NCBI GenBank assembly: GCA_016933575.1
Contig: JAFGAR010000064.1
Location: 32,001-96,000, forward strand
Length of the DNA: 64,000 nucleotides
DNA from: Candidatus Thorarchaeota archaeon
GTDB taxonomy: Archaea > Asgardarchaeota > Thorarchaeia > Thorarchaeales > Thorarchaeaceae
Direction of reading: 5' to 3'
Below, in pieces: positions 4,442 to 46,483 of this stretch (position 1 is its first letter; the number at the start of each line of letters is the position of its first letter). The translations under genes were made by a program, and so were the position numbers. The notes under the pieces are model-generated. The model worked only from the letters and a program-made list of their open reading frames with translations, did no database searches and had not been told where the DNA came from.

Positions 4442-7400
4442 ATGCGTTCAATGCGATTAATCAACAAGACATTCACCTTGTTCCTATTGACATTGTTCGT
4501 AGTTTCCTTTGCAATGGCAGGTAATTCTGCAGCCATTCCTCAACAAGACTCTATAGTGATTGAGGATATGAACTACCTGGCTAGTCTACAACCAGTTTCC
4601 CAATCTACAACCGCAGATACTGGGACAAATGTGAATTGGTACACAGACACAGGACACTACAACAATACATGGACGTGGTCGAATAACAACTGGCTCTTTG
4701 GACCTGAAGCCAGCTATGAAATTTTCTATGACAATGGTAGTCAAGTCGATAAACTCGACTATCTGCCAGTTTCAGAACAGATTACTTGGAAGATAAATAT
4801 TCCAAAGAATGTTCTTCGAGGCTCTGGTATCAATTCAGTCTACATCAATGGTTGGTACATCGTACCTCCTGAGGCAAACATGACTGCTAGTTTCAATATT
4901 GACTTTTACAATGGGACTCCAGCAACATGGTCTGTTTATTCCTACAGCTGGAACCGCACCAACTATGAAAGCGGTCCACCATTCCTAACAATCAACCAGC
5001 CTGGTTGTTCCTTAACAGAGGACTCAGCTATGTATTATGTTACATACAAGATTACATTCTTGGAAGAAGTCCCCGTTGGACTCTACGGTATTAACATTCA
5101 GATTACTGATAGCGATTACAATTCACACACAGTGAAATCCAGGTATGCTTCAACATACGAGAGTGATAAGATTGCCATTGGTATCCCACGGTCTCTAGCT
5201 TATAGCGAAGCGTATCATGGTGGTTACACACTGGAGAAACAAGATCTTTCTGGTGATTTAATCTACAGTGTAAGCCGTGAAACAGACTTTATGATGCGTT
5301 TCAATATCACAGGAAACGGAGATCTCGACTATGCTATGCTATGGTCATACTTTAGTGGTCAGATGAAGATTCCTGTGAACCGAACAGGATATCATGATGT
5401 TATGGTAACAAAGACTGGTGGTTGGGTCTGGAATCCAGAAATTCAAACTTATATATACAACAATTCAATCGAGTTTACGATACCCGAGAGGGTTTGGGGC
5501 GAATATACAGAATATGAGTATTACTATGGTTCTGACTATCGAGAATATGAATATCGCTATCTTATGTACAACGCGACAACCGGTCTAGATGAAGTATATA
5601 CCTCAACTAGCACCCAACAAATGCAACTGATGTTTGTCTTCAATTTTACAACGTGGTCATTTGAAACACTCTATGGATTTACATATACAACATACCCCTT
5701 TGAGACCTTCGTGCCAGGAGTATATTATTCCGAAACTATATTCTACACTGAGCCAATCGAAAATGCTCCATTCCAAATGTTCGAATTGAATCTTGGATTA
5801 AGCAACGCCTATTCCCAAGATGGTGTTGTGAGTGTTGAATTCATAGGACATTTCACAGAGGATGCACCTAAGGGTTCTGTAGTCAATTTCTATGACATGG
5901 TCGTTGATAAAAGTGGCTTCTATTATGGCATTAATGCTGGAGACACTGGTGATTATCCTATGACTTGGCAAGAATACAATGATGCCAAGTCTGTAGCAGT
6001 TGAATCACCTGTCACTATAGCAAAACTTCTGCGACCAGACGACTCGCCTGTCTATGGTTGGTTCTTTCCAGCCAAATCTGGTGAGGAATTCAAAGTTCGG
6101 GGTCGTCTCCAAGGAGGAGCTGATCTAGCTTCTGATATCGATGGAGCCATCTTCGAGATGAAATCCTATGATAGTCACTATACTGATACATCTTATGGAT
6201 ACACAGACATGTACTATGAGATTCTAGTGGAATCTGATGCTACTGTAACAATGACAGCTTACAACTACACTGCATTGAACAATTACACATACGGATATCA
6301 CTGGGAGTGGGGACAGTACCTCGCAACTGGTTGGCATTATGAATACAATGAGACCTCTGGAGAAACAATATGGGTCTATGGTGATTACTACACCTATGGT
6401 GAACAATGGGTTGAAGGATGGTATTGGGACTGGTTCTATTTCAACCAAAAGACAGGTGAATGGGTGAATTATCGAGATTGGTACTACTACGATTATAGAT
6501 CTGAGGCAACAAAAGTCAATACTGCATTTGCTGAAGTATCTAACATAACCATCTATACGAGTGGCGGAGATCTCTATTACTCATTCCTTGTGAATCTTAC
6601 TGATTATGTCCGTGAGATTTCTCATTGGTGGGACTTCAGATTTGCAAATAGCACCTGGATAGAGGATCCCTCTTCCGAGATGGGTTTCCATGATATTGGT
6701 ATCTGGAGATCTGGGTGGATTCATAGCTTCGATCATATGGGCGAAGAGGTCTATGTAGATGTCACATCAAAGATTGGTGTGTACAACAGCTCAATCTCTG
6801 GTATCTCAGATTGGCTTCCAGTCGAAGAGACCCCCTATATCTCAATTGATGGTGTTGACTACCCAATCAAAGTTCGAAACATCATGTATTCTTACTCTAC
6901 TACGACTGAGGAGAGAATTCTCTTCTATGACAATGATGGTGAGTATTATGAACTCCTGAATGGCACCAAGATCTATATTCAAAGCGAGCGGACAGCCTTC
7001 ATCTATAATGTGACCATTCCATTCTATGGTTCGTTCCTCACAACTCAGAAACATGCATACTATTGGTATGACGGAGTCGAATATTGGAACAGCTGGATAG
7101 ATATCAATGGCAATGTTCACCAAGGAACTGATTATTCCGACTGGGATATGAATGCAATCGTGGAGTACCTTAGCTCGTCAGATATTATTCAAGCTGGATA
7201 CTATCTTCGTGTAGGTGAATCAACAATCCTTCGCGTGCAAGACTATCCACGCAGTGATCCTAGGACTGGTACAGAATATATCTTAGATGAATTCGGTACA
7301 CGATATGATCTAGTCTATGTTTATGGTTACCAATACATTGACTATGAAGGATTGCTTCAACGTGTATCCTACACACAAGAGTACTTTAACGCAACTTACC

Positions 7401-31859: not shown

Positions 31860-33800
31860 ATGGGGCTCAAACATAAACAGATTGATCAGCTCAAAGAGAT
31901 TTTTGGAGACCGTGTAGTCACGGCTAAACATGAGCTATTTCTTCAATCCATGGATGTGGGTTCTCTTCCAAAGCAGGTTGGCTGGTTGATGAATCTCAAA
32001 CCAGATGCTATCGTTCAACCAATGACCCCTGAAGAGATTCGTTCACTCTATAAATTCGCAAATGCGGAAAAAATCCCTCTGGTTCCTAGAGGCGCAGGCA
32101 CTTCTGGCTATGGTGGTGCAATACCACGAAAAGGAGGCGTTGTTGTTGATATGCGCCGTATGGATAATATTGTAACAGTTGATGAGAAGAATCTGACCGT
32201 TGTTGTAGAACCCGGTATCTGCTGGTCCAATCTTCAACTAGAACTCAATCGACTTGGTCTCGACCTACGCTGCTATCCCTCATCTGCCCTCTCCGCCACA
32301 GTTGGAGGCTGGGTAGCCCAAGGAGGCGATGGGATAGGTAGTTTGAAGTATGGGACTATCAACAAGAACTGTGTTGAATTTGAAGTAGTTCTTCCAAATG
32401 AGAAGATAATTCGTACAAGTGATACAGATCTCTTTTGCGATACAGAGGGTATCCTTGGTATACTGACAAAGGTAACCCTAAAGATTAAGCCCTTGACCAG
32501 GATCAAAGCCTTTGTCTCTAGCTTTCCAGAGAATTACCTAATGAATCTCGCAATCGAGAAGATTCTAGAAGACGGTCCACTCCCTTTCACAATAAAATTT
32601 GAAGAATCTAAATACACAGACTTGAAGAAGTCTGTCTGGGAGGAGGACTGGAAATTCCCGTATCCTGTTCATCACTGTACTATTATGGTCGTCTACGAAG
32701 GTGATGAAGAAGAGATCGAGACCGGTGCTGAAGTGGTTCGCCAAGTCACAGAGGCTCACAAAGGAGTCCTATATGATGACCATGTAGGCGAGCACGAGTG
32801 GCATGAGCGATTCTACCCAATGAGAATCAAGAAGGCCGGACCTACCCTTGTAGTTGGACAAGCATTTGCACCACTCGAAAACTTAGGTGCTATCTTTGAT
32901 GACTTCCAGTTTGAACAGGCATCTGCGAAGGCAGGTATTGATGGTTATGTCAATTCTAAGAACGCAGTCACAATGATGGGATATTTTCTCGAAGATGAAC
33001 GTCGTTCTTTCTATATGCTATCATGGTCTCAGAGCTTTGTCATTTTCAAAATTGCGCAACGTCACGGTGGACATCCACATTCAACTGGTATATGGTTCGC
33101 TAATTATGCACATATTTACTTCGGCAAACAGAGATTAGCTCGAATCCGAGCAGCGAAGCTGAAGTGGGATCAAAAAGAGATTTCGAATCCTGGTAAAATC
33201 TTTGCATATTGGCTTCCCTTCATGTTACGTGTGGGCAAGTACTTCATGTGGATTGGTTTCGATTTGCTACGGAATGGTTTTGGCAGGATTGCACCAATTC
33301 TTCTGAAATGGCTTCAGAATGTACCACCACTGAAGTGGTTATTACGGTGGGGTCGCGCTCACAGTCCTTGGCCGATTCAATACGGACTCGGGTGTTGTAT
33401 GGCTGATGGCGCAGCCGCAGTAGCATCACGATGGGATATAGAGAGATTCGGGATGCTCCCTCTCTTTGGACCCCGGCAGACGGATGTCCTTTGGATCTCA
33501 GGATCCCTTACAAAGAAGATGGCACCACGACTTCGTCGAATCTATGAACAGATGCCAGAGCCAAAGTATGTCATATCCTATGGCCAATGTGCAGCATCTG
33601 GTGGAATGTTTTTCGATGGATATTCTTTAATCGCTCCTGCTGATACGGTCGTGCCAGTGGACGTCTATATCCCCGGCTGTCCTCCCAAACCTGCTGACTT
33701 TGTGAGAGCTCACTTGATTTTACAGAACAAGATACGCGCTGGGACTACACACTGGCAAAAACGGTACGAGAATCAGGATTCGATGGGGTTGATTCAATAA
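31860..33800 (+). CDS. nuoB: Fusion: GlcD/VAO-type FAD-linked oxidoreductase + NuoB (N2 cluster) domain
   Basis: N-part: PRGAGTSGYGG, ATVGGWVA, TEGILGILT, NPGK. C-part: WPIQYGLGCC, DIERFG, PRQTD, KMAPRLRRIYEQMPEPKYVIS.G.CA.SGG, PVDVYIPGCPP. Confidence 0.92.
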   Translation: MGLKHKQIDQLKEIFGDRVVTAKHELFLQSMDVGSLPKQVGWLMNLKPDAIVQPMTPEEIRSLYKFANAEKIPLVPRGAGTSGYGGAIPRKGGVVVDMRRMDNIVTVDEKNLTVVVEPGICWSNLQLELNRLGLDLRCYPSSALSATVGGWVAQGGDGIGSLKYGTINKNCVEFEVVLPNEKIIRTSDTDLFCDTEGILGILTKVTLKIKPLTRIKAFVSSFPENYLMNLAIEKILEDGPLPFTIKFEESKYTDLKKSVWEEDWKFPYPVHHCTIMVVYEGDEEEIETGAEVVRQVTEAHKGVLYDDHVGEHEWHERFYPMRIKKAGPTLVVGQAFAPLENLGAIFDDFQFEQASAKAGIDGYVNSKNAVTMMGYFLEDERRSFYMLSWSQSFVIFKIAQRHGGHPHSTGIWFANYAHIYFGKQRLARIRAAKLKWDQKEISNPGKIFAYWLPFMLRVGKYFMWIGFDLLRNGFGRIAPILLKWLQNVPPLKWLLRWGRAHSPWPIQYGLGCCMADGAAAVASRWDIERFGMLPLFGPRQTDVLWISGSLTKKMAPRLRRIYEQMPEPKYVISYGQCAASGGMFFDGYSLIAPADTVVPVDVYIPGCPPKPADFVRAHLILQNKIRAGTTHWQKRYENQDSMGLIQ

Positions 33801-34318
33801 TGGCACTACGCGAAGATAGCGAACCCTATTGCTTAGCTTGGGTTGGTTTCCTCTTGATGGGTGCATATTATGCCAATTTCGGATACCAACTATGGACCAA
33901 TCCTGTTGCAGTATCTGCTTTCATCAACAACTCTCCCTCAATGCTAATCCTCCTTGGATTGCCTCCACTAATGGTGTTCCTGTTTACAGGGTACTTGCGA
34001 CCTTCTCGTGGAAAAGCAAAGATGAGCATGCTAGGTCCCTCTGTCATTGCAGGATTGTTCTTCGTGATTATATCATATCAGGTTGGATCAACGACTACTA
34101 TCCTCGGAGATCTGATAGTGTTTTCAGCATGGGGTATTGGAAGTGCTTTGTTGACAGCTGGAGGATTTTCAATTATGGCTTCTTTGGAGAAGAACACATC
34201 TCCTGGAATTATGGATATTAGTTCACTTCATTATGGTCCTGTAAAAGAAACGCCTGCACCTACTGAGGAGTCAGTACCTCAAGGCTCCGATGTAAAGCCA
34301 GCGGAATCGGCACAATAA
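33800..34318 (+). CDS. Hypothetical 4-TM membrane protein coupled to the FAD-NuoB gene
   Basis: TAATG stop/start overlap; four hydrophobic helices and a polar tail. Confidence 0.75.
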   Translation: MALREDSEPYCLAWVGFLLMGAYYANFGYQLWTNPVAVSAFINNSPSMLILLGLPPLMVFLFTGYLRPSRGKAKMSMLGPSVIAGLFFVIISYQVGSTTTILGDLIVFSAWGIGSALLTAGGFSIMASLEKNTSPGIMDISSLHYGPVKETPAPTEESVPQGSDVKPAESAQ

Positions 34319-34321
34319 TTC

Positions 34322-34696
34322 CTAGTCTGTTTCTGGAAGCCATGCGAGAGCCGCAAAGGCCAGCAATAATCCACAGGCCATCCAGAAAAAGAGTAGAGCT
34401 CCCATTAGACCTTCTGGAAAGAGCGTTATGATAAGGAATCCATGGACACCACCTATGATTCCTGACAAAGTTGTCAGACTGACACGACCCGGTCTCGATT
34501 TGGTCCTTGCAAGAGCAAAAGTTGAGCATACGGTTACTATGCCACTCAGGAACAGAACTAGTTTAATCGCTATGTCTGAGATAGTAGCTGTTAGAATTAT
34601 CCAGAAGTATACTCCAAGGAGTCCCATCCCAATAAGAAGGACCAAGTAATAGAAAAATGTGCCACGGATGAATGACAACCAATTCGACCTCTTCAT
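34322..34696 (-). CDS. Hypothetical 4-TM membrane protein
   Basis: 124-aa hydrophobic ORF convergent with 33800..34318. Confidence 0.65.
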   Translation of the reverse strand: MKRSNWLSFIRGTFFYYLVLLIGMGLLGVYFWIILTATISDIAIKLVLFLSGIVTVCSTFALARTKSRPGRVSLTTLSGIIGGVHGFLIITLFPEGLMGALLFFWMACGLLLAFAALAWLPETD

Positions 34697-34979
34697 TTGT
34701 TACTACGAGAAAGTCGAAGTGTTGTGCTGTATATTTAACTCCTTTGAGTGATGTTTGTTTGGGCGAATGGTTTTTAACATGCATTCAGAATGCGCCTGCT
34801 TAAGTTCGAAAGTACGGAACGTGACCATAAATGGTGATGTGCTGTGCAAGCCAGGATCAAAGATGCGGAGCTTAGAGAATGAAACATTTGTGCACTGAAA
34901 CCGCAAGAGATAGATATTGCAGACAAGAAGTCATTTTCCACAACTCACCTGGCGCTGAGTTTTCACTCTAGGAGGTCTA

Positions 34980-35432
34980 TTGATTACGATGAGGCTTTTC
35001 ATCGATTTCTTCCCGGTGCTTGTCTGGGCAGTATTAGTTATTGTCCTGATTCTCGGAATGTTAGTTGGATCTTGGGTATTGAGGCCTCATGTTCTCCAGA
35101 ATAGTGAAAAGACATCGAGCTACGAATGCGGTGAAGAACCAATAGGCCCCGCAAGAATTGCCTATCCCTACAACTATCTTGTCTATACTATCCTGTTTGT
35201 TGTTGTTGATGTGCTTGGCGCATTTCTGTGGTTACTTGCTGCATCCTCTTTTCGATTGAGCCCGACAATCGTTTGGCAAGTCCTTGTATTTGTGCTGATT
35301 CTTATGGGTGGTCTCGGCTTTGCCATGAAGATGCTTCCCCAGACTTTCCTCAGTGGAAAAGAAACTCTAGCACTATATCGCGAAGCTAAGGCTGCAAAGG
35401 AAAAACAAGAGCTTGAAGCAGGAGGTCACTGA
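34980..35432 (+). CDS. nuoA: Complex I-like subunit A
   Basis: 3 TM, EKTSSYECGEEP loop, LFVVVDV; GGAGGT RBS. The start may be ATG 34989. Confidence 0.92.
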   Translation: MITMRLFIDFFPVLVWAVLVIVLILGMLVGSWVLRPHVLQNSEKTSSYECGEEPIGPARIAYPYNYLVYTILFVVVDVLGAFLWLLAASSFRLSPTIVWQVLVFVLILMGGLGFAMKMLPQTFLSGKETLALYREAKAAKEKQELEAGGH

Positions 35433-35436
35433 AGAG

Positions 35437-36081
35437 ATGCAACTCGATATATGGTTTGAAGAGGCTGAGTTCATTGTAATTGCTGCCATTGTCATTTTTC
35501 TTGCATACCTTGCACTGGAACATCGTGACATTGTCTACGCGGCATTCTTTTTTGGCTTCATGGCCTCTTTTGTTGCTGGTTTCTTTCTATTGCTTGAAGC
35601 ACCTTTCATTGCAGGTATGCAGATCGCTGTATACACTGGAGGGATTAGTGCATTGATAATCTTCGCAGTGCTTCTTCTACCCCGAGCCCAAGACTCTTCC
35701 TTGGAGGTCTTCGCTTCGCCTAGAAGAAGGAATGCTGGATTGGTACTATCAGCGATGGTTGGCTCATTGTCAGCAGCCCTAGCCCTCGTTTTTCCATGGT
35801 ACGAAACTTTCTCATCAGTGACTCCGCCACTTGAGAACAATCTTGAACTTCTCTCAAAATGGCTCTGGTCTGATCATGGTATCTATGTTCAGATGATTGC
35901 TCTCATCCTTCTCACAGCAATTGTTGGATCTATTGCTATTTTGAAGATGGAGAAAGCAGAACGTCTCACACCTATAGTAAGTGATTTTGGTGTTGAGTCA
36001 GTTCCTGAACCAATTGATGACGAAGCATCTGATATTGAAGATGAATCCCCGCAGAATGGGACTGAGGAGGTTGATACATAA
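35437..36081 (+). CDS. nuoJ: Complex I-like subunit J
   Basis: LEAPFIAGMQIAVYTGGI and LILLTAIVGSI motifs. Confidence 0.9.
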   Translation: MQLDIWFEEAEFIVIAAIVIFLAYLALEHRDIVYAAFFFGFMASFVAGFFLLLEAPFIAGMQIAVYTGGISALIIFAVLLLPRAQDSSLEVFASPRRRNAGLVLSAMVGSLSAALALVFPWYETFSSVTPPLENNLELLSKWLWSDHGIYVQMIALILLTAIVGSIAILKMEKAERLTPIVSDFGVESVPEPIDDEASDIEDESPQNGTEEVDT

Positions 36082-36401
36082 TGGTCCCCCTCTCCTGGTA
36101 TCTGGTGGTGGCGTTCATTCTCATAGGTCTCGGAATCTATGGAATGATGGTCAAGCGAAATCTCATACGTATTCTAATTGGAGCTGAAATCCTTGGTAAT
36201 GGAGTCAACATTGCCCTAGTTGCTGTTTCAATCTACAGCCCTGTCTTCACATTTACGGGACAGGGTTTACTCATGCTGGTGATCTCTGTGGCAGCAGCTC
36301 ACACAGCTCTTGCGATGGTTCTGATGCTTATTTACAATCAACGATACAAATCAGTTGACCTTGGTAGACCATTCAAACTGGAGGATGATAGCAATGCCTG
36401 A
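36081..36401 (+). CDS. nuoK: Complex I-like subunit K
   Basis: IGLGIYG..KRNLI.ILIGAEI, GQ, VAAA; 3 TM. Confidence 0.92.
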   Translation: MVPLSWYLVVAFILIGLGIYGMMVKRNLIRILIGAEILGNGVNIALVAVSIYSPVFTFTGQGLLMLVISVAAAHTALAMVLMLIYNQRYKSVDLGRPFKLEDDSNA

Positions 36402-36903
36402 TGCATCGTCACTGGGTCGTGCAATCATCAATAAGCTGCCTGAGGTCGAGTCTAAACCACTTCAGGGAAATAAGATCGAGCTCCTGGTCCCTCATGAGAA
36501 AATTCGAGATGTGGTATCACTTATTGACGAATTGGTTCCCGATGCCTTACCCGAATCTGCATTTGGCATTGATCTTGAGGATGACAAATACGAAGTAGTC
36601 TACATATTTTGGTCTCATGAATCAACGATGCTCTGTCAGTTACGAGTTTCACTTGTAGGGGAGAAACCATCAATTCAGACTGTTAGCGACATATTTCCTG
36701 GGTTGGAATGGCATGAGCGTGAAACTAGTGAGATGTTCGGTATCACCTTTGAGAACCATCCTGACATGAGACCTCTCCTGCTGCCTGATGATTTGGTTGG
36801 AAAATATCCCATGAGAAAACGATTCAAGACCGATCGAAGTCGCCTTGAAGAAACTGGCCTTTCAACCCCTAGTCCTAGACCTGAACGTGGAGGTGGCGAA
36901 TGA
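36394..36903 (+). CDS. nuoC: Complex I-like subunit C
   Basis: YEVVY and WHERETSEMFGITFENHPDMRPLLL...YPMRK. ATG 36394 follows a GGAGG RBS. Confidence 0.92.
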   Translation: MPDASSLGRAIINKLPEVESKPLQGNKIELLVPHEKIRDVVSLIDELVPDALPESAFGIDLEDDKYEVVYIFWSHESTMLCQLRVSLVGEKPSIQTVSDIFPGLEWHERETSEMFGITFENHPDMRPLLLPDDLVGKYPMRKRFKTDRSRLEETGLSTPSPRPERGGGE

Positions 36904-38040
36904 ATGTGTCCAGATATCCTTGATGAAACCAGTGAGATCTGGTTTGGTCCTCAACATGTCAGTGCTCATGGGTGGGCTACAAAACTGAAACTTGTTGGAG
37001 ACTACATTGTCGAGTGTGACCCGAATGCTGGATATTTCCATCGTTCGGCTGAAAAATGTCTAGAGTTCCGTAATTTCAGGCAAGGTTCAATGGTATGTGA
37101 ACGTATCTGCATGATGGAAGCATTCGTTGCAGAATATCCCTATGTGGCTGCAGTCGAGAAGATTGTTGATCTTGAGGTCCCAGAACGCGCGAAAATCATG
37201 CGTACTATCATGATTGAGATGAATCGGATTCATTCTCTTCAGTTTTGGTGGGGTCAATTTGCAGGGGAGTTAGGTCTCTTTGCGATGCTGCTTTGGCCCT
37301 GGGTTGATAGAGAATATACACTTGATGCTTTTGAGGAACTGACTGGGTCTCGTCATACTGTATCCTATGTCACACCTGGCGGGGTTAAGTATGATTTCAC
37401 TCCCAAGTTCTTGGAAAAATTTGAAATTGCACTCTCTAGAGTGGAAGAACGAATCCCGATCTTCAAGGACATGTTTCTTGGTAGCCCTACGTTCAGGTTA
37501 CGTACCGAGGGAGTAGGTCAGTACACTGCAAAACAAGGTCTCAAGTGGGGCTTGAGTGGTCCTAATATCAAAGCTTGTGGTATTCCAATGGACCTCCGTA
37601 AGGATGACCCTGACTCGAATCTTGCATATGATATGATTGATTGGGAAGTACCCATTACAATAAACGAGAATCATCCTGGTGAATGCGATGCATTTGACAG
37701 ACTAGTTCAGCGATTCAAAGAAATTGAGACTTCAGTTGGTATTATCAGAAAGCTCTTACCTCTTGTCCCTGAAGGTCCAATCATTGACCCCAAGGCTCGA
37801 GCCAAAGTCAATCGTCTACCTGAAGGAGAGGGTTATGGTAGGATTGAGGGTACTCGTGGAATCACAACCGTTTGGTTGAAGACATTCGATAAGGCTCAGA
37901 CTCCATATAGAGCCAAAATACGTGGTCCTTGCTTCGCATCATATTATGCATTGAAGCATATTGTGCCAGGTGCTCGTTTTGCGGACTTTCCAGCGATATT
38001 TGGAAGCTTGGATCCTTATCCCGGGTGGTGGGACAGATAG
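36904..38040 (+). CDS. nuoD: Complex I-like subunit D (no NiFe site)
   Basis: FGPQHVSAHG, GYFHRSAEK, EMNRIHS, PGGV, EGTRG, PYRAKIRGP and terminal GSLDP..WDR. It lacks both hydrogenase CxxC pairs. Confidence 0.92.
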   Translation: MCPDILDETSEIWFGPQHVSAHGWATKLKLVGDYIVECDPNAGYFHRSAEKCLEFRNFRQGSMVCERICMMEAFVAEYPYVAAVEKIVDLEVPERAKIMRTIMIEMNRIHSLQFWWGQFAGELGLFAMLLWPWVDREYTLDAFEELTGSRHTVSYVTPGGVKYDFTPKFLEKFEIALSRVEERIPIFKDMFLGSPTFRLRTEGVGQYTAKQGLKWGLSGPNIKACGIPMDLRKDDPDSNLAYDMIDWEVPITINENHPGECDAFDRLVQRFKEIETSVGIIRKLLPLVPEGPIIDPKARAKVNRLPEGEGYGRIEGTRGITTVWLKTFDKAQTPYRAKIRGPCFASYYALKHIVPGARFADFPAIFGSLDPYPGWWDR

Positions 38041-38053
38041 GAGGTGCGATGAG

Positions 38054-39199
38054 ATGCAGTTCGATTTCATAACTTGGCTTGACGGGCTTTATAATTGGTT
38101 CATCGGTCTCTTGATCTGGTTTTGGAATGTCATTGAATGGTTCTTCTTTTGGATCATTGATCTTATCAATGGAGTATGGGCCATAGTAATAATCCCTGAG
38201 AATTTCATGTTTCTATTCCGTTCTATTATATTCCCTGGACTCATCTTCATCGTGCTTGCACTCATTTTCAGTATCTGGTTCATCCGGAAGACATGGGCAC
38301 GAATTCAGGATAGACGTGGACCGACACATATGGGCAAGTATGGTGGTCTACAATTGTTTGCGGATGCAATCAAACTCATGGCTAAGGAAACAATAATTCC
38401 CGACAAGGCAAGACGTTGGGCTTATAGGATTCTACCTTCGTTACTCCTCTTAATTGTACTACTTCCCTTCGCATTCATACCCTGGGATCCAATATGGAAT
38501 ATTCTTGGAAATCCTGCCTTTCCCGACCTTTCTGTGAGCCTAGTGCTAGTCTTTGCATTTCTCACTGCAGTGCCTGTACTCTCACTACTAATCGGTTGGG
38601 TCTCAGGTTCCAAGTATTCTCTGATTGGAGGATTTCGAGCTGCAAATAACCAATTTGCCTCCGAGATACCCATGGTCATTTCTTCTATTGGTCCTGCAAT
38701 GCTTGCTGGTTCTCTGAGTCTCTTCGGAATTGTTCAAGCGCAGACCAGCATCTGGTACATTGTTCTTCTCCCAATCAACTTTACCACCTTCATGGTTGCT
38801 GCAATTGCCTCTGTAGGAACGTTTCCCTTTGATGCTCCCGTTGCAGACTCCGAGATTATCTTCGGGTGGCGAACAGAGCTATCGGGCATCTACTTCACGT
38901 TGGTCTATTTTGCTGAGTTTGCCGAACAAATGCTTTACTCAGCCTTAATGGTTGTACTCTTCTTTGGTGGTTTTAATGGACTTCCATTCTTACCAGGAAT
39001 TGTCAATTTCCTAATCAAGTGGCTTGTCGTATTATTCATCTTTGTAGTTGTGACATCTTCCTTCTATAGAATCAGACAGGACCAGATAGTGCACCTTTGT
39101 TGGAAATACTTACTGCCACTTTCAATACTTAATGTAGTTCTTGTCATGTTTGCAGTTGTCTACATACCAGGACTACTTCCGCTTGTGATAGGAGGATAA
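38054..39199 (+). CDS. nuoH: Complex I-like subunit H
   Basis: RK..ARIQDRRGP, GLQLFADAIKLMAKE, SKYSLIGGFR, PFD and RIRQDQ. ATG 38054 follows GGAGGTG. Confidence 0.93.
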   Translation: MQFDFITWLDGLYNWFIGLLIWFWNVIEWFFFWIIDLINGVWAIVIIPENFMFLFRSIIFPGLIFIVLALIFSIWFIRKTWARIQDRRGPTHMGKYGGLQLFADAIKLMAKETIIPDKARRWAYRILPSLLLLIVLLPFAFIPWDPIWNILGNPAFPDLSVSLVLVFAFLTAVPVLSLLIGWVSGSKYSLIGGFRAANNQFASEIPMVISSIGPAMLAGSLSLFGIVQAQTSIWYIVLLPINFTTFMVAAIASVGTFPFDAPVADSEIIFGWRTELSGIYFTLVYFAEFAEQMLYSALMVVLFFGGFNGLPFLPGIVNFLIKWLVVLFIFVVVTSSFYRIRQDQIVHLCWKYLLPLSILNVVLVMFAVVYIPGLLPLVIGG

Positions 39200-39203
39200 T
39201 GCG

Positions 39204-39635
39204 ATGGGTTTCCTAAGTAATCTTGGTGAAATATTTCAAATCCTGAAACACGTCTTTCGTCAAACATTCAAAAGACCATTCACTTACTTCTATCCATTTG
39301 AAGACAGACCTTATCCTGAGAGAACCCGTGGCAGACACATCCACATTCGTGAGAACTGTACTGCATGTGCTCAGTGTGTGAGAGCATGTCCTGTTGCAGC
39401 AATTCGTATTGACAAGGAAGATAGAAAGTTCGAGAAGGATGCAGCTCTCTATTTTGATTATACGCGTTGCATTTTCTGCGGAGATTGCGTCAGTGCCTGT
39501 CGATTCGATGCACTTTTCCATACGAAAATCGTGGACCTCTCGGAGGGTGACCGTGATGACCTTATCTATGGCCCTGATAAGATAACAAAACTCGATAGAG
39601 ACCCTCTTGAGTGGCGTGGAAGGAGGTTCAGGTAG
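39204..39635 (+). CDS. nuoI: Complex I-like subunit I (2x[4Fe-4S])
   Basis: YPFE..RGRH, CTACAQCVRACP and CIFCGDCVSAC. Confidence 0.95.
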   Translation: MGFLSNLGEIFQILKHVFRQTFKRPFTYFYPFEDRPYPERTRGRHIHIRENCTACAQCVRACPVAAIRIDKEDRKFEKDAALYFDYTRCIFCGDCVSACRFDALFHTKIVDLSEGDRDDLIYGPDKITKLDRDPLEWRGRRFR

Positions 39636-41134
39636 TGTTGTTTGGAATTCCCTTCATGGCACTATCACTCGCCGTGATGTTCATCGGAGGTCTCTTCATC
39701 TACCTGTTCAAGGCTAGCATTGGCGATGCAGCTGGTAGAATTGCAGTTGCTGTGTCTCTTGTAGGAACCATCCTGATGATTCCTCCATTCTACGAGCTCA
39801 TGATGTTTGGCTCATCCGTTGAAACAGCAGTATGGTCAAATCTACTTGAGCCATTTGGGCTGTACTTGGATCCAATTGCATTTCCAATCACTTTTGCTGT
39901 AGTAGTTCTTGGATTTCTATCAGTTGTCTATGCGGTGGGTTATACCAAACATACTGAGAACAAACCTACTTTTTTCGCAAATCAATTGTTCTTCATAATG
40001 GGAATGACATGGGTAACTCTTGCGACTAATATGATCGAGTTCTTTATAGCTTGGGAGCTTATGTTGGTGCCAAGCTACTTCCTGATTCTGTTCTGGGGTT
40101 TCCCTGAAACCAGAAAACGTACTGCTCTGAAATTCTGGTTGTACACACAATCTGGAGCTGTCTGTATCCTGATAGGCTTTGGACTTCTCTATGCTCAGGG
40201 TGGTTCATTTGTTCTGGCAAATATTGTTGCTAATGGTGACCTCATCTTCAAGGTCATTTTCATACTTCTAGCTGCTGGATTCCTTGTGAAAATGGCAGTT
40301 TTCCCAATCCACTGGTGGTTACCACCAGTTCATGCTGAGGCTCCAACTCCAATCTCAGTCCTATTGTCTGGTGCTATGATTGAAACCGGCGCCTATGCTC
40401 TGGTACGATTCGGTACCCTGACCCTTTACGATGCAGCGATATCGCTCTCAATCTGGGTAGCTGCACTCGGTGTTATCACGATGTTCTATGGCGGTTTCAT
40501 GGCACTAGCTCAGGTGGACATCAAGAGACTCCTTGCTTACTCCTCCGTTTCACAGATGGGGTACGTACTATTTGCTCTCGGTTCTGTTACAATCATAGGT
40601 GTTTCAGGTGGAATGTTCCATCTCATCAATCATGCTTTCTCAAAGGGTCTGCTGTTTATGACCGCTGGAGCTGTTATTCATCAGACCGGACTTCGTGATA
40701 TTAAGAAGATGGGAGGTCTCTCAAATAAGATGCCTATCACCGCCTTCGCAGCTGCCATCGGAATGATGAGCATTGCCGGTAGTCCTCCGCTCTCCGGATT
40801 CGCTTCGGAGTGGATGATGTTCCTCGGGGGATTTAATCGTGCTATAATTACCGATCCATTTACCCATATTGTCCTAGGAACTAACTTACCATTTCTGATT
40901 TTAGCAATTTTAGCTGTTTCCAGCTCTATCCTCAGCGCAGCATACATGCTTCGTTTCTTCTGGCGAGTCTTCCTTGGGCCTCATCCCGAAGAGCTCGAAG
41001 ATGTTAAGGAAAGTCCAAGATCCATGACCATTCCGATGATCATCCTTGGTGTCCTCATTGTAATCTTTGGAATATTCCCGAGCTTGGCACTAGATGTCAT
41101 TGTCCCGGCGTTTTCGAGTGCACTTGGTCCGTGA
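39635..41134 (+). CDS. Additional NuoM/MrpD-like antiporter subunit (second M)
   Basis: AWELM, KMAVFPIHWWLP..HAEAPTP, DIKRLLAYSSVSQMG, NHAFSKGLLF and GFASE. The start is probably GTG 39635. Confidence 0.88.
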   Translation: MLFGIPFMALSLAVMFIGGLFIYLFKASIGDAAGRIAVAVSLVGTILMIPPFYELMMFGSSVETAVWSNLLEPFGLYLDPIAFPITFAVVVLGFLSVVYAVGYTKHTENKPTFFANQLFFIMGMTWVTLATNMIEFFIAWELMLVPSYFLILFWGFPETRKRTALKFWLYTQSGAVCILIGFGLLYAQGGSFVLANIVANGDLIFKVIFILLAAGFLVKMAVFPIHWWLPPVHAEAPTPISVLLSGAMIETGAYALVRFGTLTLYDAAISLSIWVAALGVITMFYGGFMALAQVDIKRLLAYSSVSQMGYVLFALGSVTIIGVSGGMFHLINHAFSKGLLFMTAGAVIHQTGLRDIKKMGGLSNKMPITAFAAAIGMMSIAGSPPLSGFASEWMMFLGGFNRAIITDPFTHIVLGTNLPFLILAILAVSSSILSAAYMLRFFWRVFLGPHPEELEDVKESPRSMTIPMIILGVLIVIFGIFPSLALDVIVPAFSSALGP

Positions 41135-41144
41135 GGTGAATCAA

Positions 41145-43397
41145 ATGCTCTTTGGTCTACCAGAATATCTAATCATCGTCATTCCACTTGCAGGTTCCTT
41201 ATTTGTCCCAATAATTGGGAGGTATAGTACTCGTGCTAGAGACTGGACTCCTGCATTGTTGATGGGCATCTCTATGATTCTATGCTGGTCTCTCATACCT
41301 GACATTGGATCAGTCCCTAAGACCTGGAATTGGATCAACATTCCTGGACTTGTGATTCCCTTTAGTATGCTTCTTGACTCACTGTCCGTCATCATGGGTG
41401 TACTTGCTAGCACGCTCTGTTTTCTCATATACGTGTACAGCACCGAGTACATGGCACACGAGGGAGATAGAGACCGCTTCTTCTTCCTGATGCTTGCCTT
41501 CGGGGGTGGTATGCTTACCCTGGTCCTCTCAAACAACCTCCTGATTGCGTTTATTGGATGGGAGATCATGGGATTTTGTAGTTACGGACTCATTGGTTTC
41601 TGGAATGACAAGCGCAATCCTCCAGAGGTAGACCCAACTGGCTATGAGTCAAGTAATCCGTTGCTGCAGTTCAAGACCGAGGGCGAGTACAATACTCATT
41701 GCGGAACAAAGGCTTTCGTGGTAACAAGAATTGGTGACGCACTGATGCTGGGCGGCATCCTGCTTCTATTTACATTCACAGGGTCATTTCTCTTTCAAGA
41801 CACATCAATTGGAAGTCAGGCTGTTGAAGGTATTGCAGAACATGGCGGCTGGATAACTGCCCTAGCTGGTGTGGGTCTTCTGTTGCCCACGCTTTTGTTA
41901 ATCTTTGCTGGCGCGATTGGAAAGTCAGGTCAATTCCCTCTGCAGGTATGGCTCCCCGAAGCCATGAGTGGTCCGACTGCGGTTTCTGCTTTGATTCATG
42001 CTGCAACCATGGTCAAAGCAGGAGTCTATATCACTGCAAGATTTCTCTTGACAATCGTATCTGCTACAGAGACAAGCGGACACTCTTCATCTGCTATTGG
42101 GATGTTTCCGCTACAGATAGGCTTCCCTGATGCGTTCACCTTCTTTGCCATAGTTGCAATCGTTGGTGCTCTCACCGCATTCATTACTGGTACAATGGGA
42201 ATGGTCTCAAATGAACTGAAGCAGGTGTTGGCATTCTCAACTCTTAGCCAACTAGGCTATATGATGCTTGCAATAGGTACTGCTGGCATGTTGACGCATT
42301 ATGATGTTGCTTATCTGAGTAGCGTCATGCATGTCGTCAGTCATGGTGCATTCAAAGCGTTGCTGTTTCTCTCATCTGGTGGGATTATCCACGCGTTACA
42401 TACCAAGTATATGAGTAAGATGGGCGGGTTGAAGAAGTATATGCCCAAGACCTTTGCGCTTATGTGGATTGGAGTGCTAGCGTTGTCAGGAATTCCTCCA
42501 TTCTCAGGTTTCTGGTCAAAAGACTCAATCATAGAGCATGTATATGCACTTGGTGTTGAAACGCCTCTGGGAATTTTCCTGTTCATTCTTGCTATCGCAG
42601 CTGCGGCTTGTACAATCTTCTATAGCATTCGACTCATGGGAATGGTCTTCTATGGCCCATCAGAGTTTGACGAACATGACCAAGAGGAGGAATCAATCAG
42701 TAGCCATAATGACAAAGAGGAATCCGAAGAATCTCATGACGAACATCGCGGGGTACCCTCTGATCCAGGTCCAGCTATGATGATTCCGCTCTACATTCTA
42801 GCAGCATTCACTATCATTGCCTTCATAATCTATCCAATGATACAGAATATTGTCCTCCAGACTAATAGGGACTTGTTTATCATATTTCTTGAGGATATGG
42901 TAGCTGCGAAATTTGGTCCAGAAGGTTTAGTTCCCTTCACACTCACCATTGGAGCACTTGCTCTTGGTGGGATTCCAGCCTATTGGATTTACATTAAAAA
43001 CCAAGATACTCCAAACTCAATCATTCCAGAGAATGGAATTCTTAGGAAGTTGCACAACTTCTTGAAGCACCGCTGGTATATCAATGAGGGATACTATTGG
43101 TTTGTCAACAAGTTCCTCAGATTTGCTGATCTCTGGCGCAGGGAGATTGATGAGCCTATAATTGATGGCATTGACTTCAAGTCTGCAGCCACAGCCCAGG
43201 TACTTGCGACTAAGATTCGATGGTTTGATGATAATGTTGTGGATGGTTTTGCTGAGGCCGTGTCAACAAAGAGTGTTGAAGCTTCTGAGGTTGGACTTGA
43301 GTCTCAGACAGGAAAGATCAATGACTACGTCGGAGTGGTGATTTTCGGAGTAGGTCTCCTGATCATCATTGGACTTCTATCATTGGGGGTGCTCTAA
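41145..43397 (+). CDS. nuoL: Complex I-like subunit L
   Basis: GWEIMG, TRIGD, GKSGQFPLQVWLPEAM.GPT.VSALIHAATMVKAG, HGAFKALLF, GFWSKD, and a lateral helix ending QTG + terminal TM. Confidence 0.94.
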   Translation: MLFGLPEYLIIVIPLAGSLFVPIIGRYSTRARDWTPALLMGISMILCWSLIPDIGSVPKTWNWINIPGLVIPFSMLLDSLSVIMGVLASTLCFLIYVYSTEYMAHEGDRDRFFFLMLAFGGGMLTLVLSNNLLIAFIGWEIMGFCSYGLIGFWNDKRNPPEVDPTGYESSNPLLQFKTEGEYNTHCGTKAFVVTRIGDALMLGGILLLFTFTGSFLFQDTSIGSQAVEGIAEHGGWITALAGVGLLLPTLLLIFAGAIGKSGQFPLQVWLPEAMSGPTAVSALIHAATMVKAGVYITARFLLTIVSATETSGHSSSAIGMFPLQIGFPDAFTFFAIVAIVGALTAFITGTMGMVSNELKQVLAFSTLSQLGYMMLAIGTAGMLTHYDVAYLSSVMHVVSHGAFKALLFLSSGGIIHALHTKYMSKMGGLKKYMPKTFALMWIGVLALSGIPPFSGFWSKDSIIEHVYALGVETPLGIFLFILAIAAAACTIFYSIRLMGMVFYGPSEFDEHDQEEESISSHNDKEESEESHDEHRGVPSDPGPAMMIPLYILAAFTIIAFIIYPMIQNIVLQTNRDLFIIFLEDMVAAKFGPEGLVPFTLTIGALALGGIPAYWIYIKNQDTPNSIIPENGILRKLHNFLKHRWYINEGYYWFVNKFLRFADLWRREIDEPIIDGIDFKSAATAQVLATKIRWFDDNVVDGFAEAVSTKSVEASEVGLESQTGKINDYVGVVIFGVGLLIIIGLLSLGVL

Positions 43398-44978
43398 TTG
43401 CAGGTAGACTCTACAACTTTGATAACAAGTATTCCAATGAATATCCTCGTCCTCATACTTGTCATTCCTCTAGTTGGTGCGGTCCTTGCATACATCGCAG
43501 GCAGCAAGGGTGCACGTGCAATCACACTCCTGATTACGACACTCGAACTAGGCTTAGCCCTTCTACTCATTCTAGGTACTCCTTCAGTTGGTCCAGATCC
43601 TGGTGGAATGAGTTACACATGGATCTATACGATTGCGAGACTTGGAACCACTGTTGATTCTCCTGTCTTTCAAATCATTCTTGGTGTTGATGGAATCTCA
43701 GTAGTAATGATCCTCCTCTCCAATCTCGTCGTATGGATTGCAGCAATTGCATCAAATCATATCAAGAACGCAGAAGGTGTATACTACTCCTTATTCCTGC
43801 TCCTGCAGACAGGCCTCCTTGGAGTTTTTGTATCTCTTGATCTCATTGGATTCTTCATCTTTTGGGAACTTGTCCTTGTACCAATGTTTTTCATCATTGG
43901 CAGATGGGGCGAAGATGGAAGCAGACACGCGGCTATCAAGTTCTTCATCTATACTCATCTTGGTTCTGCAGTAATGCTCGTTGGATTCTTCTACATCTAT
44001 TTCATGTCTTATCAGTTCAATATTCTTGGATATCCAACTGCAGTCCCAACATTCAGCATGGTTGCGCTTCGGAACATCGGACTTGACCCAACCATTCAGA
44101 TAGGTTTTGCTCTTGCCATATTCATGGGTGCAGGCGTGAAACTTCCAGTATTTCCATTACATAACTGGTTGCCATGGGCTCACGTAAAGGCACCAACTCC
44201 TGGTTCAGTTATCCTCGCTGGAATTCTTCTGAAGATGGGTGGGTATGCATTCATCAGACTCGGACTTTGGATGGTCCCAGAAGCAATGGCTAGACTTGCC
44301 ATTCCCTTTGCCTTTGTGGCTGTCTTCACATGTATCTACGCTGCATTTACCGCACTTGCTCAGACTGATATGAAGAGCCTTGTAGCTTATACGTCTATCA
44401 ACCACATGTCATGGGTCCTACTTGGCGTTGCTGCGTATGCGGCTGCCTACAATTCTCCAGATGCAGCTATTCGAGCTGCTGCGAACTTGGCTATCCAAGG
44501 TTCTATATTCATGATGTTCTCACACGGCACCATAATCTCTGTCATGTTCATTGTAGCTGGGCAGCTCAAATATAGTGTAGGTACTCGTGAGATTCCCGAA
44601 GTTAAGGGATTGATGACACAGGCTCCTAAACTCTCAGCGATTATGATCATTGCTACCTTGGCAGCTTTCGGTCTTCCTGGATTTAGTGGATTCATAGCAG
44701 AGGCACTGGTCATCTTTGGAGCCATTGTCATTCATCCGTGGACCGCATTCATCGCGTTTGGCATTTTCTTGACAGTAGGCTACATGCTCTGGATGTTAAA
44801 TCGAATTGTCTTTAGTGATATTGACCCCGAAAAAAGCGTGAATGAAGCCGCACGAAGCGATCTCATTGCTCCAATCCTCATGTTAATTCCTGTGATTCTG
44901 CTTGGGATTTGGCCTGATCTGATATTGAATCTCGTTCAACCAGTTGTTGAACTGATGCTGAGCGGAGGTTTACCATAA
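43398..44978 (+). CDS. nuoM: Complex I-like subunit M
   Basis: DGIS, FWELVLVPM, KLPVFPLHNWLPWAH..APTPGSVILAGILLKMG and GLPGFSGFIAE. Confidence 0.94.
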   Translation: MQVDSTTLITSIPMNILVLILVIPLVGAVLAYIAGSKGARAITLLITTLELGLALLLILGTPSVGPDPGGMSYTWIYTIARLGTTVDSPVFQIILGVDGISVVMILLSNLVVWIAAIASNHIKNAEGVYYSLFLLLQTGLLGVFVSLDLIGFFIFWELVLVPMFFIIGRWGEDGSRHAAIKFFIYTHLGSAVMLVGFFYIYFMSYQFNILGYPTAVPTFSMVALRNIGLDPTIQIGFALAIFMGAGVKLPVFPLHNWLPWAHVKAPTPGSVILAGILLKMGGYAFIRLGLWMVPEAMARLAIPFAFVAVFTCIYAAFTALAQTDMKSLVAYTSINHMSWVLLGVAAYAAAYNSPDAAIRAAANLAIQGSIFMMFSHGTIISVMFIVAGQLKYSVGTREIPEVKGLMTQAPKLSAIMIIATLAAFGLPGFSGFIAEALVIFGAIVIHPWTAFIAFGIFLTVGYMLWMLNRIVFSDIDPEKSVNEAARSDLIAPILMLIPVILLGIWPDLILNLVQPVVELMLSGGLP

Positions 44979-46483
44979 TGCTGCAATTAGACATCTTGCT
45001 TGACAGCCTAAGGGCTTTATTAGCCCCTCTAAGAGACCTATTGCTCGCAATTGTACCAGCTGAATGGATCATGTCCCTTCCTGCTATTACTCTGGTAGTC
45101 TTTGGATTACTTGCCCTAATGGTCGGACTTCGATATAATCCATTAGTCATAAGCTTCATCGGTGTCATTCTTGCAACATTTGAGATGCTTCTGTTCGATC
45201 CCAGTGCTATGAGTGGCTATTCGTTTGGAACATTATTCATTCGCGATGCTTTCACCGATTTCTTCATCTACATTGTTCTTATCGTTGCTTTCCTAGTCTT
45301 GCTCTCTTCCACTCTTTGGGGGGGTGACAAAGGGACCTACAATTTCCTACTTCTCCTCTCTTTTGCAGGAGCTCTCTGGGTAATTATGGCGACAGATCTT
45401 GTAGCTCTATTTCTTGCCTGGGAACTGATGTCCACGCCAACTTATGTTCTCGTTGCTCTTAGTCCAAGACGGGAATCTGTAGATGGCGCTACAAAATACT
45501 TCGTTATGGGCTTGCTTGCAACAAACCTCATGCTACTTGGCATTGCTCTGACTATTGGTGTTACTGGAACCACTGACCTTCACACCATTGGAGTGTTCAT
45601 TAATAGCCTATGGGCTTCACCAGCTGGTAGTGAACCAGCGGTCTACACAATGCTTCTTGCAATGGTCTTGTTTATTGTTTCATTCGGATTCAAGGTCGGT
45701 ATATTTCCTGGATGGCAATGGGTTCCTGATGCATATGCAAGTGCTGATGGTAGTGTCACTGCTTATCTTGCAGGAGGTTCTAAAAAGACAGGAGTGAGTG
45801 CCCTTCTACGAATCTTGATGGTTGCATTCTTTGTTGCTAGGACTGAGTGGACTCTATTAATAGCTGGTGTAGCAATCCTAACAATGATCATTGGTAATCT
45901 ATTAGCTCTCGCTCAGAAGGATATCATGAGGATGTTAGCGTATTCCAGCATTGCGATGATGGGTTATCTCTTCATTGGTATCGCCGCAGCTAACGAATTG
46001 GGCATGGCTGCAGCTAGTTTTCATGCATTCACTCATGCAATAATGAAGACAGCTGCCTTCATCCTTGTGTGGATGCTATCTTTAAGACTCACGAAGAGAA
46101 TAACCTATGATGACCTCGCGGGATTGAACAAGCGAGCACCCATTGCAGCAGCTATGTTTGCCATACTGATGCTCTCTCTTGCAGGACTTCCTGTAGGTGT
46201 AGGGTTCTGGTCAAAATTAGTACTCTTCCAGAGTGCAATCCTCGCAGACATGTGGTGGTTGGCTTTGATAGGTCTCTTGAACTCAGTCTTCTCCTTGGGC
46301 TATTATTTACGAATACTGAAATATACTTACATGATTGAACCTGTTGATGACTCGAAATTAAATCTACCAAGAGTACCCCTATTTGCAGTAGGCATTTGTG
46401 TAGCTATTGTTCTCTTGCTGTTGGTATTTCCAAACCTTGTCCTTGATTATGCCTTTCAAGCGGCATTGACCTTCTTCCCATAG
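44978..46483 (+). CDS. nuoN: Complex I-like subunit N
   Basis: AWELMS, KYF, FKVGIFP...WVPDAY, SKK, RMLAYSSIA and LSLAGLP...GFWSK. Confidence 0.94.
   Translation: MLQLDILLDSLRALLAPLRDLLLAIVPAEWIMSLPAITLVVFGLLALMVGLRYNPLVISFIGVILATFEMLLFDPSAMSGYSFGTLFIRDAFTDFFIYIVLIVAFLVLLSSTLWGGDKGTYNFLLLLSFAGALWVIMATDLVALFLAWELMSTPTYVLVALSPRRESVDGATKYFVMGLLATNLMLLGIALTIGVTGTTDLHTIGVFINSLWASPAGSEPAVYTMLLAMVLFIVSFGFKVGIFPGWQWVPDAYASADGSVTAYLAGGSKKTGVSALLRILMVAFFVARTEWTLLIAGVAILTMIIGNLLALAQKDIMRMLAYSSIAMMGYLFIGIAAANELGMAAASFHAFTHAIMKTAAFILVWMLSLRLTKRITYDDLAGLNKRAPIAAAMFAILMLSLAGLPVGVGFWSKLVLFQSAILADMWWLALIGLLNSVFSLGYYLRILKYTYMIEPVDDSKLNLPRVPLFAVGICVAIVLLLLVFPNLVLDYAFQAALTFFP

Follow-up and report, generated by a model that had tools for sequence, protein, structure and literature searches.

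Probable four-pump complex I-like ion pump with a second, archaeal-type M subunit encoded in an operon of Thorarchaeota

Complex I-like enzymes with more than three antiporter-like pump subunits are known as the 2M complex I of Nitrospira, the green complex I of rhizobia and a five-pump form in Manganitrophaceae (PMC9040806). The 2M complex I is attributed to Chadwick, Hemp, Fischer and Orphan 2018 (ISME J 12:2668) in the citing passages of PMC9040806, PMC7300363, PMC9038741 and PMC7419157. In such passages it is defined by an extra NuoM together with a 26-aa insertion in the lateral helix (HL) of NuoL (PMC9040806), and the extra M is ascribed to a duplication of NuoM. Archaeal 2M complexes have been described in marine heterotrophic Thaumarchaeota (PMC7300363) and in Angelarchaeales and ammonia-oxidizing archaea (PMC9038741). 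Thaumarchaeota and Thermoplasmata are archaeal groups for which the design had been reported before. Herein, a nuo gene cluster is analyzed in a stretch of 64,000 nucleotides from Candidatus Thorarchaeota archaeon (assembly GCA_016933575.1, 85.5% complete; contig JAFGAR010000064.1, called C38 here, positions 32,001 to 96,000). This stretch is referred to as the window, and its numbering is used throughout. The cluster contains, between nuoI and nuoL, a gene for an M-like protein that is named M2 here. The operon probably encodes a single complex I-like, redox-driven ion pump in which N, M, M2 and L are the four antiporter-like subunits.

Open reading frame (ORF) and profile annotation of the window identified a single, tightly packed gene cluster on the + strand from 31860 to 46483. 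The gene order is a fusion of a flavin adenine dinucleotide (FAD) oxidase with NuoB, a conserved gene named orf172, a gap, nuoA-J-K-C-D-H-I, M2, L, M and N, so that nuoJ and nuoK stand upstream of nuoC. All 11 core complex I subunits (A, B, C, D, H, I, J, K, L, M and N) are encoded, B only as the fusion domain. Four PF00361 antiporter-like ORFs lie head to tail. M2 directly follows nuoI, as the preliminary description of this DNA had stated for an extra M-like gene of about 500 aa. Its likely GTG start overlaps the nuoI TAG stop and lies 8-9 nt after AAGGAGG. The nuoL ATG is preceded by GAGGTGA, and the MLFGLP start is common to 40 orthologs. L abuts M, and M and N overlap by one base. Four PF00361 genes in one operon, with overlapping or nearly abutting stops and starts and Shine-Dalgarno-like motifs, support the assignment to one machine.

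The gene order is well conserved. A scan of species-representative genomes gave 55 loci, all but three from Thorarchaeota or Thorarchaeota-like genomes, at 67-90% identity. When the window proteins were searched by tblastn, the order fusion-orf172-A-J-K-C-D-H-I-M2-L-M-N was found wherever the contig was long enough, and I-M2-L-M-N was kept in every Thorarchaeota locus spanning it. This survey of gene order across Asgard genomes, which had been proposed as a check, showed that the order is kept in about 50 species-level Thorarchaeota genomes. Outside Thorarchaeota, four further Asgard families and a single Thermoproteota genome had M2-L-M-N operons as well. Among 400 Asgard genomes, M2 orthologs (at least 69% identity) occur in genera g1-g12 of the family of the window and not in g13-g16; the NuoD of the operon has the identical distribution. 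Thorarchaeota genomes with the operon and without M2 were looked for. Eight candidates had NuoD and no M2 match, and in 8/8 the contig ends before the M2 position. The order in about 50 genomes, together with a pattern of charged transmembrane (TM) residues that is identical in 42/42 orthologs (below), indicates that the feature is not due to chance.

The second hallmark is the lateral helix of NuoL. It carries two D-x-x-(I/V)(I/V)-D-G motifs with Asp-Gly pairs exactly 26 residues apart, which is a tandem 26-residue module. In alignments with structures of the Protein Data Bank, cyanobacterial NdhF1 and M. smegmatis NuoL each show a single motif, which falls on the first copy for NdhF1 and on the second for the M. 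smegmatis protein. The span from RWY to QTG was 77-78 aa in 41 Thorarchaeota L subunits (77 in the window), 48 in E. coli, 51 in Bacillus and 51 in a second L of the same genome, encoded on contig C212. Three-pump L subunits have spans of 48-53 aa. The RWY-to-QTG block was also counted per row in an alignment of 39 rows (A1). It contains 70-71 residues in ten L subunits of three-pump clusters, and 95-97 residues in the L of Thorarchaeota (96 in the window) and of three other Asgard four-pump operons (L068, L069 and L071). The block has 98 residues in L070, and the L070 genome has four pump genes on two contigs. In the Thermoproteota sample, the span was 77 in the four-pump L097 and about 79 in L099, the latter read by eye as the motif search missed its end, and 52-53 in L subunits at loci without a second M. 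Helix length thus tracks pump number in the Asgard and Thermoproteota set, with the four-pump L longer by 25-27 residues. The description of the operon as a 2M-type complex I in an archaeon is borne out by the operon-embedded extra M and the 26-residue HL module; the type itself had already been reported in archaea (PMC7300363, PMC9038741). The L099 locus (G546:C1, Thermoproteota) displays a second archaeal four-pump order, Ma-Mb-L ... N, in which tandem M-type genes precede L and the helix is lengthened.

The two M-like subunits were placed by phylogeny, as had been suggested. Two quick IQ-TREE runs were performed under the posterior mean site frequency (PMSF) model, with E. coli Nuo and Hyf, Bacillus Nuo, and plasmid MrpA and MrpD as references. 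The searches behind the support values were short, the references sit on long branches, and the deep order of these trees is tentative. M2 was placed in the M superclade, apart from MrpA, MrpD and Hyf; for MrpD this refers to the first tree, where its branch was very long and unresolved, and it was left out of the second. MrpA groups with the L subunits. M2 lies outside the canonical NuoM clade (Shimodaira-Hasegawa-like approximate likelihood ratio test, SH-aLRT, 99). That clade includes E. coli and Bacillus NuoM, the M of the window and the M of every M2-L-M-N operon. The NuoN of the window clusters with its E. coli and Bacillus counterparts (SH-aLRT 100). The Thorarchaeota M2 groups with the M2 of L068, L069 and L071 and of the Thermoproteota locus L097, and this group is nested in a clade with the sole M-position subunit of archaeal three-pump clusters, which are of the K-L-mid-N type in Asgard archaea and of the K-M-L-N type in Thermoproteota. 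In the K-M-L-N operons the M gene stands before L, as M2 does.

On these trees, M2 is an archaeal-type M, and the M between L and N is its bacterial-like partner. A NuoM duplication as the origin of the second M was not found, and M2 and M fall in different clades of these quick trees. The earlier picture of a normal L, M and N plus an extra subunit is right as to the four genes; M2, however, is the type that stands before L as the sole M in K-M-L-N operons, and which M counts as extra is a matter of viewpoint. At the profile level, M2 scores above the NuoM cut-off of TIGR01972 (299.5 vs 263.8 bits), and the HyfB, MrpD and MrpA models score nearly equal. Among the best-scoring M2 relatives in a library of 50% clusters are P0125, P0128-P0130 and similar proteins of 1250-1330 aa with two or three fused antiporter-like stretches, one of them from Sporomusa carbonis. 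A second homolog search (P0140) gave no named relatives from ammonia oxidizers.

The four-pump enzyme would work as follows. As a functional pump module of archaeal M type, M2 would most likely stand beside L, so that the arm order would be N-M-M2-L. It would be held under the lateral helix of NuoL, which is longer by one 26-residue module, or about 39 Å at 1.5 Å per helical residue. The central charge of M2 would be a NuoL-like Lys on TM11, possibly paired with a Glu on TM8, and the Glu on TM12 would be M-like. With one ion per module and one via the E-channel, about 5 ions would be moved per 2 electrons, in either direction. We infer the physical assembly of M2 in the arm, its arm position, the stoichiometry, the ion species, the electron donor and acceptor, and the energetic benefit of a fifth ion in the forward or the reverse direction.

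The electron-input side is the more unusual part of the Thorarchaeota complex. NuoE, NuoF and NuoG were not found in the operon or its flanks, to which the search was confined. The sole NuoB of the operon is the C-terminal part (residues about 490-640) of the fusion protein, behind the FAD oxidase. The solved sequence nearest to NuoD is MbsL of the Pyrococcus sulfur reductase (6u8y_L), with 205 bits vs 183 bits for the 49-kDa subunit of complex I. NuoD has Met (ERICMM) at the quinone Tyr (R-x-D-Y / RLDY) of Y. lipolytica NUCM and keeps the GPQH...HG loop. The catalytic pocket of NuoD is thus not a standard quinone site, and it is no obvious NiFe site either. MqnA/D was not found in the genome at its 85.5% completeness, and the best MenA-like match, the sole UbiA-like gene, has 74 bits, below the cut-off of 102. 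One alternative reading of these features, judged unlikely, is that the complex runs backwards, with about five ions flowing in per electron pair to drive electrons from a flavin-bound organic substrate to ferredoxin via NuoB and NuoI. The substrate, e.g. a 2-hydroxy acid, would be oxidized by the domain fused to NuoB. At textbook potentials, lifting electrons from about -190 mV to about -450 mV costs about 50-60 kJ per 2 electrons, which corresponds to 4-5 ions at 120-150 mV. If true, the four-pump arm would be matched to the input module, and a 2M arm in an anaerobe without an evident quinone would be explained.

The charged residues of M2 bear on whether it pumps at all. E. coli K-12 NuoL, NuoM and NuoN (RefSeq) were used as the residue ruler, with K234 in AVKMP, K265 in GILLK and E407 on TM12 of NuoM. 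In the MAFFT alignment, the E. coli NuoM positions E144 (TM5), K234 (TM7), K265 (TM8) and E407 (TM12) are occupied in M2 by Glu, Lys, Glu and Glu, respectively. On TM11, M2 has His-His-Lys at the positions of NuoL H334, H338 and K342. The pattern E-K-E-(H,H,K)-E is the one shared by all 42 Thorarchaeota M2 orthologs that could be extracted. The motifs GAMIETG and GFASE in M2 and GILLKMG in M were confirmed. Thus, the retention of the TM5 Glu, TM7 Lys and TM12 Glu and the Glu-for-Lys difference between the two M subunits, both reported in the preliminary description, hold. The TM8 Glu is common to most middle subunits of three-pump Asgard clusters and to a Thermoprotei relative, and the site varies across the archaeal M clade (E/K/G/A/S/V). 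The Lys at the NuoL K342 position is invariant across this clade and is lacking in canonical NuoM; the K265 position is occupied by Thr in E. coli NuoL. The archaeal M type would carry its central charge on TM11, as NuoL does, and the TM8 Glu may pair with the TM11 Lys.

It is very unlikely that M2 is part of the complex as a non-pumping spacer or regulator, which would leave the ion yield that of a three-pump enzyme. The Glu at the K265 position speaks for it, as the Lys at this site is important in E. coli NuoM. However, the TM5, TM7, TM11 and TM12 residues are invariant in the M2 orthologs, the clade always keeps the NuoL-type TM11 Lys, and Asgard complexes with three pumps carry this Glu in their sole middle subunit, a subunit that must be functional there. 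It was also considered whether the TM8 Glu marks the extra subunit or Na+ coupling, and it was rejected as a specific signal of either. Because it is present in three-pump complexes and the site varies while the TM11 Lys does not, the Glu is no specific sign of Na+ coupling. The hint at a Na+-coupled module therefore found no specific support, though Na+ coupling is compatible with the data.

As to the arm position, M2 might instead lie distal to L, or form a separate L-M2 pair as in Mrp-like or green-complex-like systems, with the helix extension serving another purpose. The M2 and L genes adjoin, and one Asgard genome contains an isolated pair of L and an M2-like gene (L070), both as this arrangement would have it. 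Yet helix length follows the number of pump genes in the sampled set, L retains its C-terminal anchor helix past the extension, and the L070 genome itself has four pump genes and a helix longer by 27 residues. This makes a distal or separate M2 very unlikely. L070 (G298:C1) belongs to Asgard family f28, with Hodarchaeota/Promethearchaeota in the NCBI protein name. Its M2-like subunit has a TM8 Lys, its neighbors are unrelated genes, among them those for a Ras-like GTPase, a glutaminyl- or glutamyl-tRNA synthetase (GlnRS/GluRS) and Clp1, and the other two pump genes are on a different contig.

The ranking of solved structures matched by M2 (MrpA with 206 bits, MbhH with 192, then MbsH' and NuoM with 160) suggested an Mrp origin, which was rejected by the trees and by the absence of MrpE and MrpG (PF01899, PF03334) from the matches in the genome, again at 85.5% completeness. 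The refuting outcome named in the preliminary description, a grouping of the extra gene with stand-alone Mrp subunits, is thus not borne out. The remaining three antiporter-like genes of the genome form the separate J-K-L-M-N cluster on C212. That M2 belongs to another machine, an Mrp antiporter or the C212/C57 complex, and is merely located beside the nuo genes, has in its favor that the MrpA and MbhH matches rank before NuoM, but it is almost certainly wrong given the strict nuoI-M2-nuoL synteny with start/stop overlap, the missing MrpE and MrpG, the position in the M superclade and the own L, M and N of C212. The C212 cluster (C212:43278-49274, genome G000, locus L010, - strand) is a stand-alone membrane module that lacks an adjoining Q-module. 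Another NuoD-like gene, of 431 aa, is found at C57:63584-64339, with a UbiA-family prenyltransferase, the one with 74 bits to MenA, about 7 kb upstream. C212 and C57 probably represent a second, split complex I-like or hydrogenase-like enzyme. With its own L, M and N and the C57 NuoD-like gene, this enzyme does not need M2.

Several observations weigh against the four-pump pump as proposed. First, the A1 block of L082 has 124 residues (+53), yet its operon has only four pump genes, which indicates that the rule of one module per subunit is not exact. L082 (G101:C25, Asgard family f14; NuoL 6879-9176, - strand) has two extra helix modules in an operon B-C-D-H-I-J-K-M2-L-M-N, and its genome contains a further antiporter-like gene of 631 aa on the separate contig G101:C2. 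L082 could represent a complex with five pumps, or it may simply depart from the length rule. Second, the AlphaFold2 monomer of NuoL has one helix across both modules, but its predicted local distance difference test (pLDDT) values are low over the lateral helix (34-68), and because of this low confidence the model adds little. Third, with no quinone pathway found and a NuoD lacking the quinone Tyr, no redox span large enough to drive the transport of five ions is evident. Fourth, the TM8 Lys that matters in E. coli NuoM is Glu in M2.

The features of the cluster are listed in Table 1. The fusion gene lies upstream of the operon in most Thorarchaeota loci; in L030, L048 and L053 an intact fusion gene was not found within 10 kb upstream. 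In four-pump operons of other Asgard families (L069, L071 and L082), NuoB is separate, unlike the Thorarchaeota fusion. Copies of orf172 are found at the matching position in Thorarchaeota loci with 33-64% identity, and no NCBIfam match was obtained for it. In the NuoL of the window, the motif IHAATMVKAG combines the TM8 His (H254 in E. coli) with a Lys at the equivalent of K265. This NuoL also contains an acidic low-complexity insert at about ORF residues 523-560, which is disordered in the AlphaFold2 model.

Table 1 Features of the gene cluster, in positions of the window.
Feature	Positions	Strand	Evidence and remarks
GlcD-like FAD oxidase + NuoB fusion, 646 aa	31860-33800	+	NCBIfam: NuoB 180.7 bits, residues 493-630; GlcD 131 bits, residues 51-348
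orf172, 172 aa, conserved	33800-34318	+	always between the fusion gene and nuoA
nuoA	34980-35432	+	Pfam Oxidored_q4
nuoJ	35413-36081	+	Pfam Oxidored_q3
nuoK	36081-36401	+	Pfam Oxidored_q2
nuoC	36355-36903	+	Pfam Complex1_30kDa
nuoD	36904-38040	+	Pfam Complex1_49kDa
nuoH	37961-39199	+	Pfam NADHdh; homologs align from about residue 31
nuoI	39204-39635	+	Pfam Fer4
M2, 499 aa from GTG 39635	39635-41134 (ORF open from 39611)	+	PF00361 244.8 bits; TIGR01972 299.5 bits
nuoL, long form, 750 aa from ATG 41145	41145-43397 (ORF from 41094)	+	NF005141 483.5 bits; TIGR01974 460 bits
Lateral helix HL of NuoL, two D-x-x-(I/V)(I/V)-D-G modules	43074-43313	+	DG at ORF residues 691 and 717
nuoM, canonical type: TM8 Lys, TM12 Glu, no TM11 Lys	43398-44978	+	TIGR01972 417.5 bits
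nuoN	44978-46483	+	TIGR01770 299.3 bits, below the cut-off of 332.6; next-best models also NuoN

Asgard archaea are the closest prokaryotic relatives of eukaryotes, and how they conserve energy is a matter of debate. The literature was searched for a four-pump complex in Thorarchaeota or other Asgard archaea, and no report was found. The Thorarchaeota arm is another member of the known 2M design and not a new kind of machine, and the four-pump 2M design is extended by it to Asgard archaea. For some Heimdallarchaeia, complex I-like complexes with fewer pump subunits than complex I are described in a preprint (bioRxiv 10.1101/2024.07.04.601786). The 26-residue HL module followed pump number across the sampled archaeal lineages and is therefore useful as an annotation rule. 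The separation from canonical NuoM of an archaeal M type, in which the central Lys lies on TM11 and the TM8 site varies, bears on how a central proton wire can be built.

Compared with known systems, respiratory complex I (NADH:quinone oxidoreductase) shares the core subunits, whereas its NuoE, F, G module and the quinone Tyr of its NuoD were not found in the Thorarchaeota operon. The Mrp cation/proton antiporter differs in that MrpE and MrpG were not found and M2 does not group with MrpA or MrpD. The Pyrococcus MBS and MBH complexes (6u8y, 6cfw) are similar in that MbsL is nearest to NuoD and M2 scores well against MbhH and MbsH'. They are different in that MrpE and MrpG, genes of the Mrp-type Na+ module, were not found in the genome of the window, and a full NuoL with HL, NuoA, NuoJ and NuoK are present. 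The rhizobial green complex I and Complex_I_3 of Manganitrophaceae likewise have more than three pump subunits, and Complex_I_3 has the 26-aa HL insertion (PMC9040806). In these, two MrpD-like subunits replace NuoL, whereas the Thorarchaeota L is of the normal NuoL type and M2 is of the M type.

Among archaeal systems, Asgard complex I-like group 4 [NiFe]-hydrogenase complexes have three pumps and a full HL helix (Valentin-Alvarado et al. 2024, PMC11291895). The Asgard K-L-mid-N clusters, matched to that study by architecture and not by sequence, contain the apparent nearest relative of M2 as their middle subunit (40-47% identity), with the TM8 Glu, TM11 Lys and TM12 Glu; they differ by three pump genes and the short helix (block of 70-71 aa). 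The Thermoproteota locus L097 (G562, 1.2 Mb) has the order J-K-M2-L-M-N ... A-B-C-D-H and shares M2-L-M-N with Thorarchaeota. The M2 of L097, with 43% identity, branches as the sister of the Asgard M2 clade (support 83). The M of this locus is in the canonical clade (99), and its helix span is also 77 aa, whereas the TM8 residue of its M2 is Ala instead of Glu, its NuoB is separate and its module order is different. Linking L097 to the clade 2 2M that was described from marine Thaumarchaeota would be speculative. The 2M complex I is among the closest described systems. The fourth M-type gene in the nuo cluster and the 26-residue HL insertion of NuoL are the same, and the archaeal examples also lack NuoEFG genes in the operon. 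The Thorarchaeota complex is distinguished by M genes that are not recent duplicates but an archaeal M2 with a bacterial-like M, by a NuoB fused to a flavin oxidase, and by a NuoD without the quinone Tyr.

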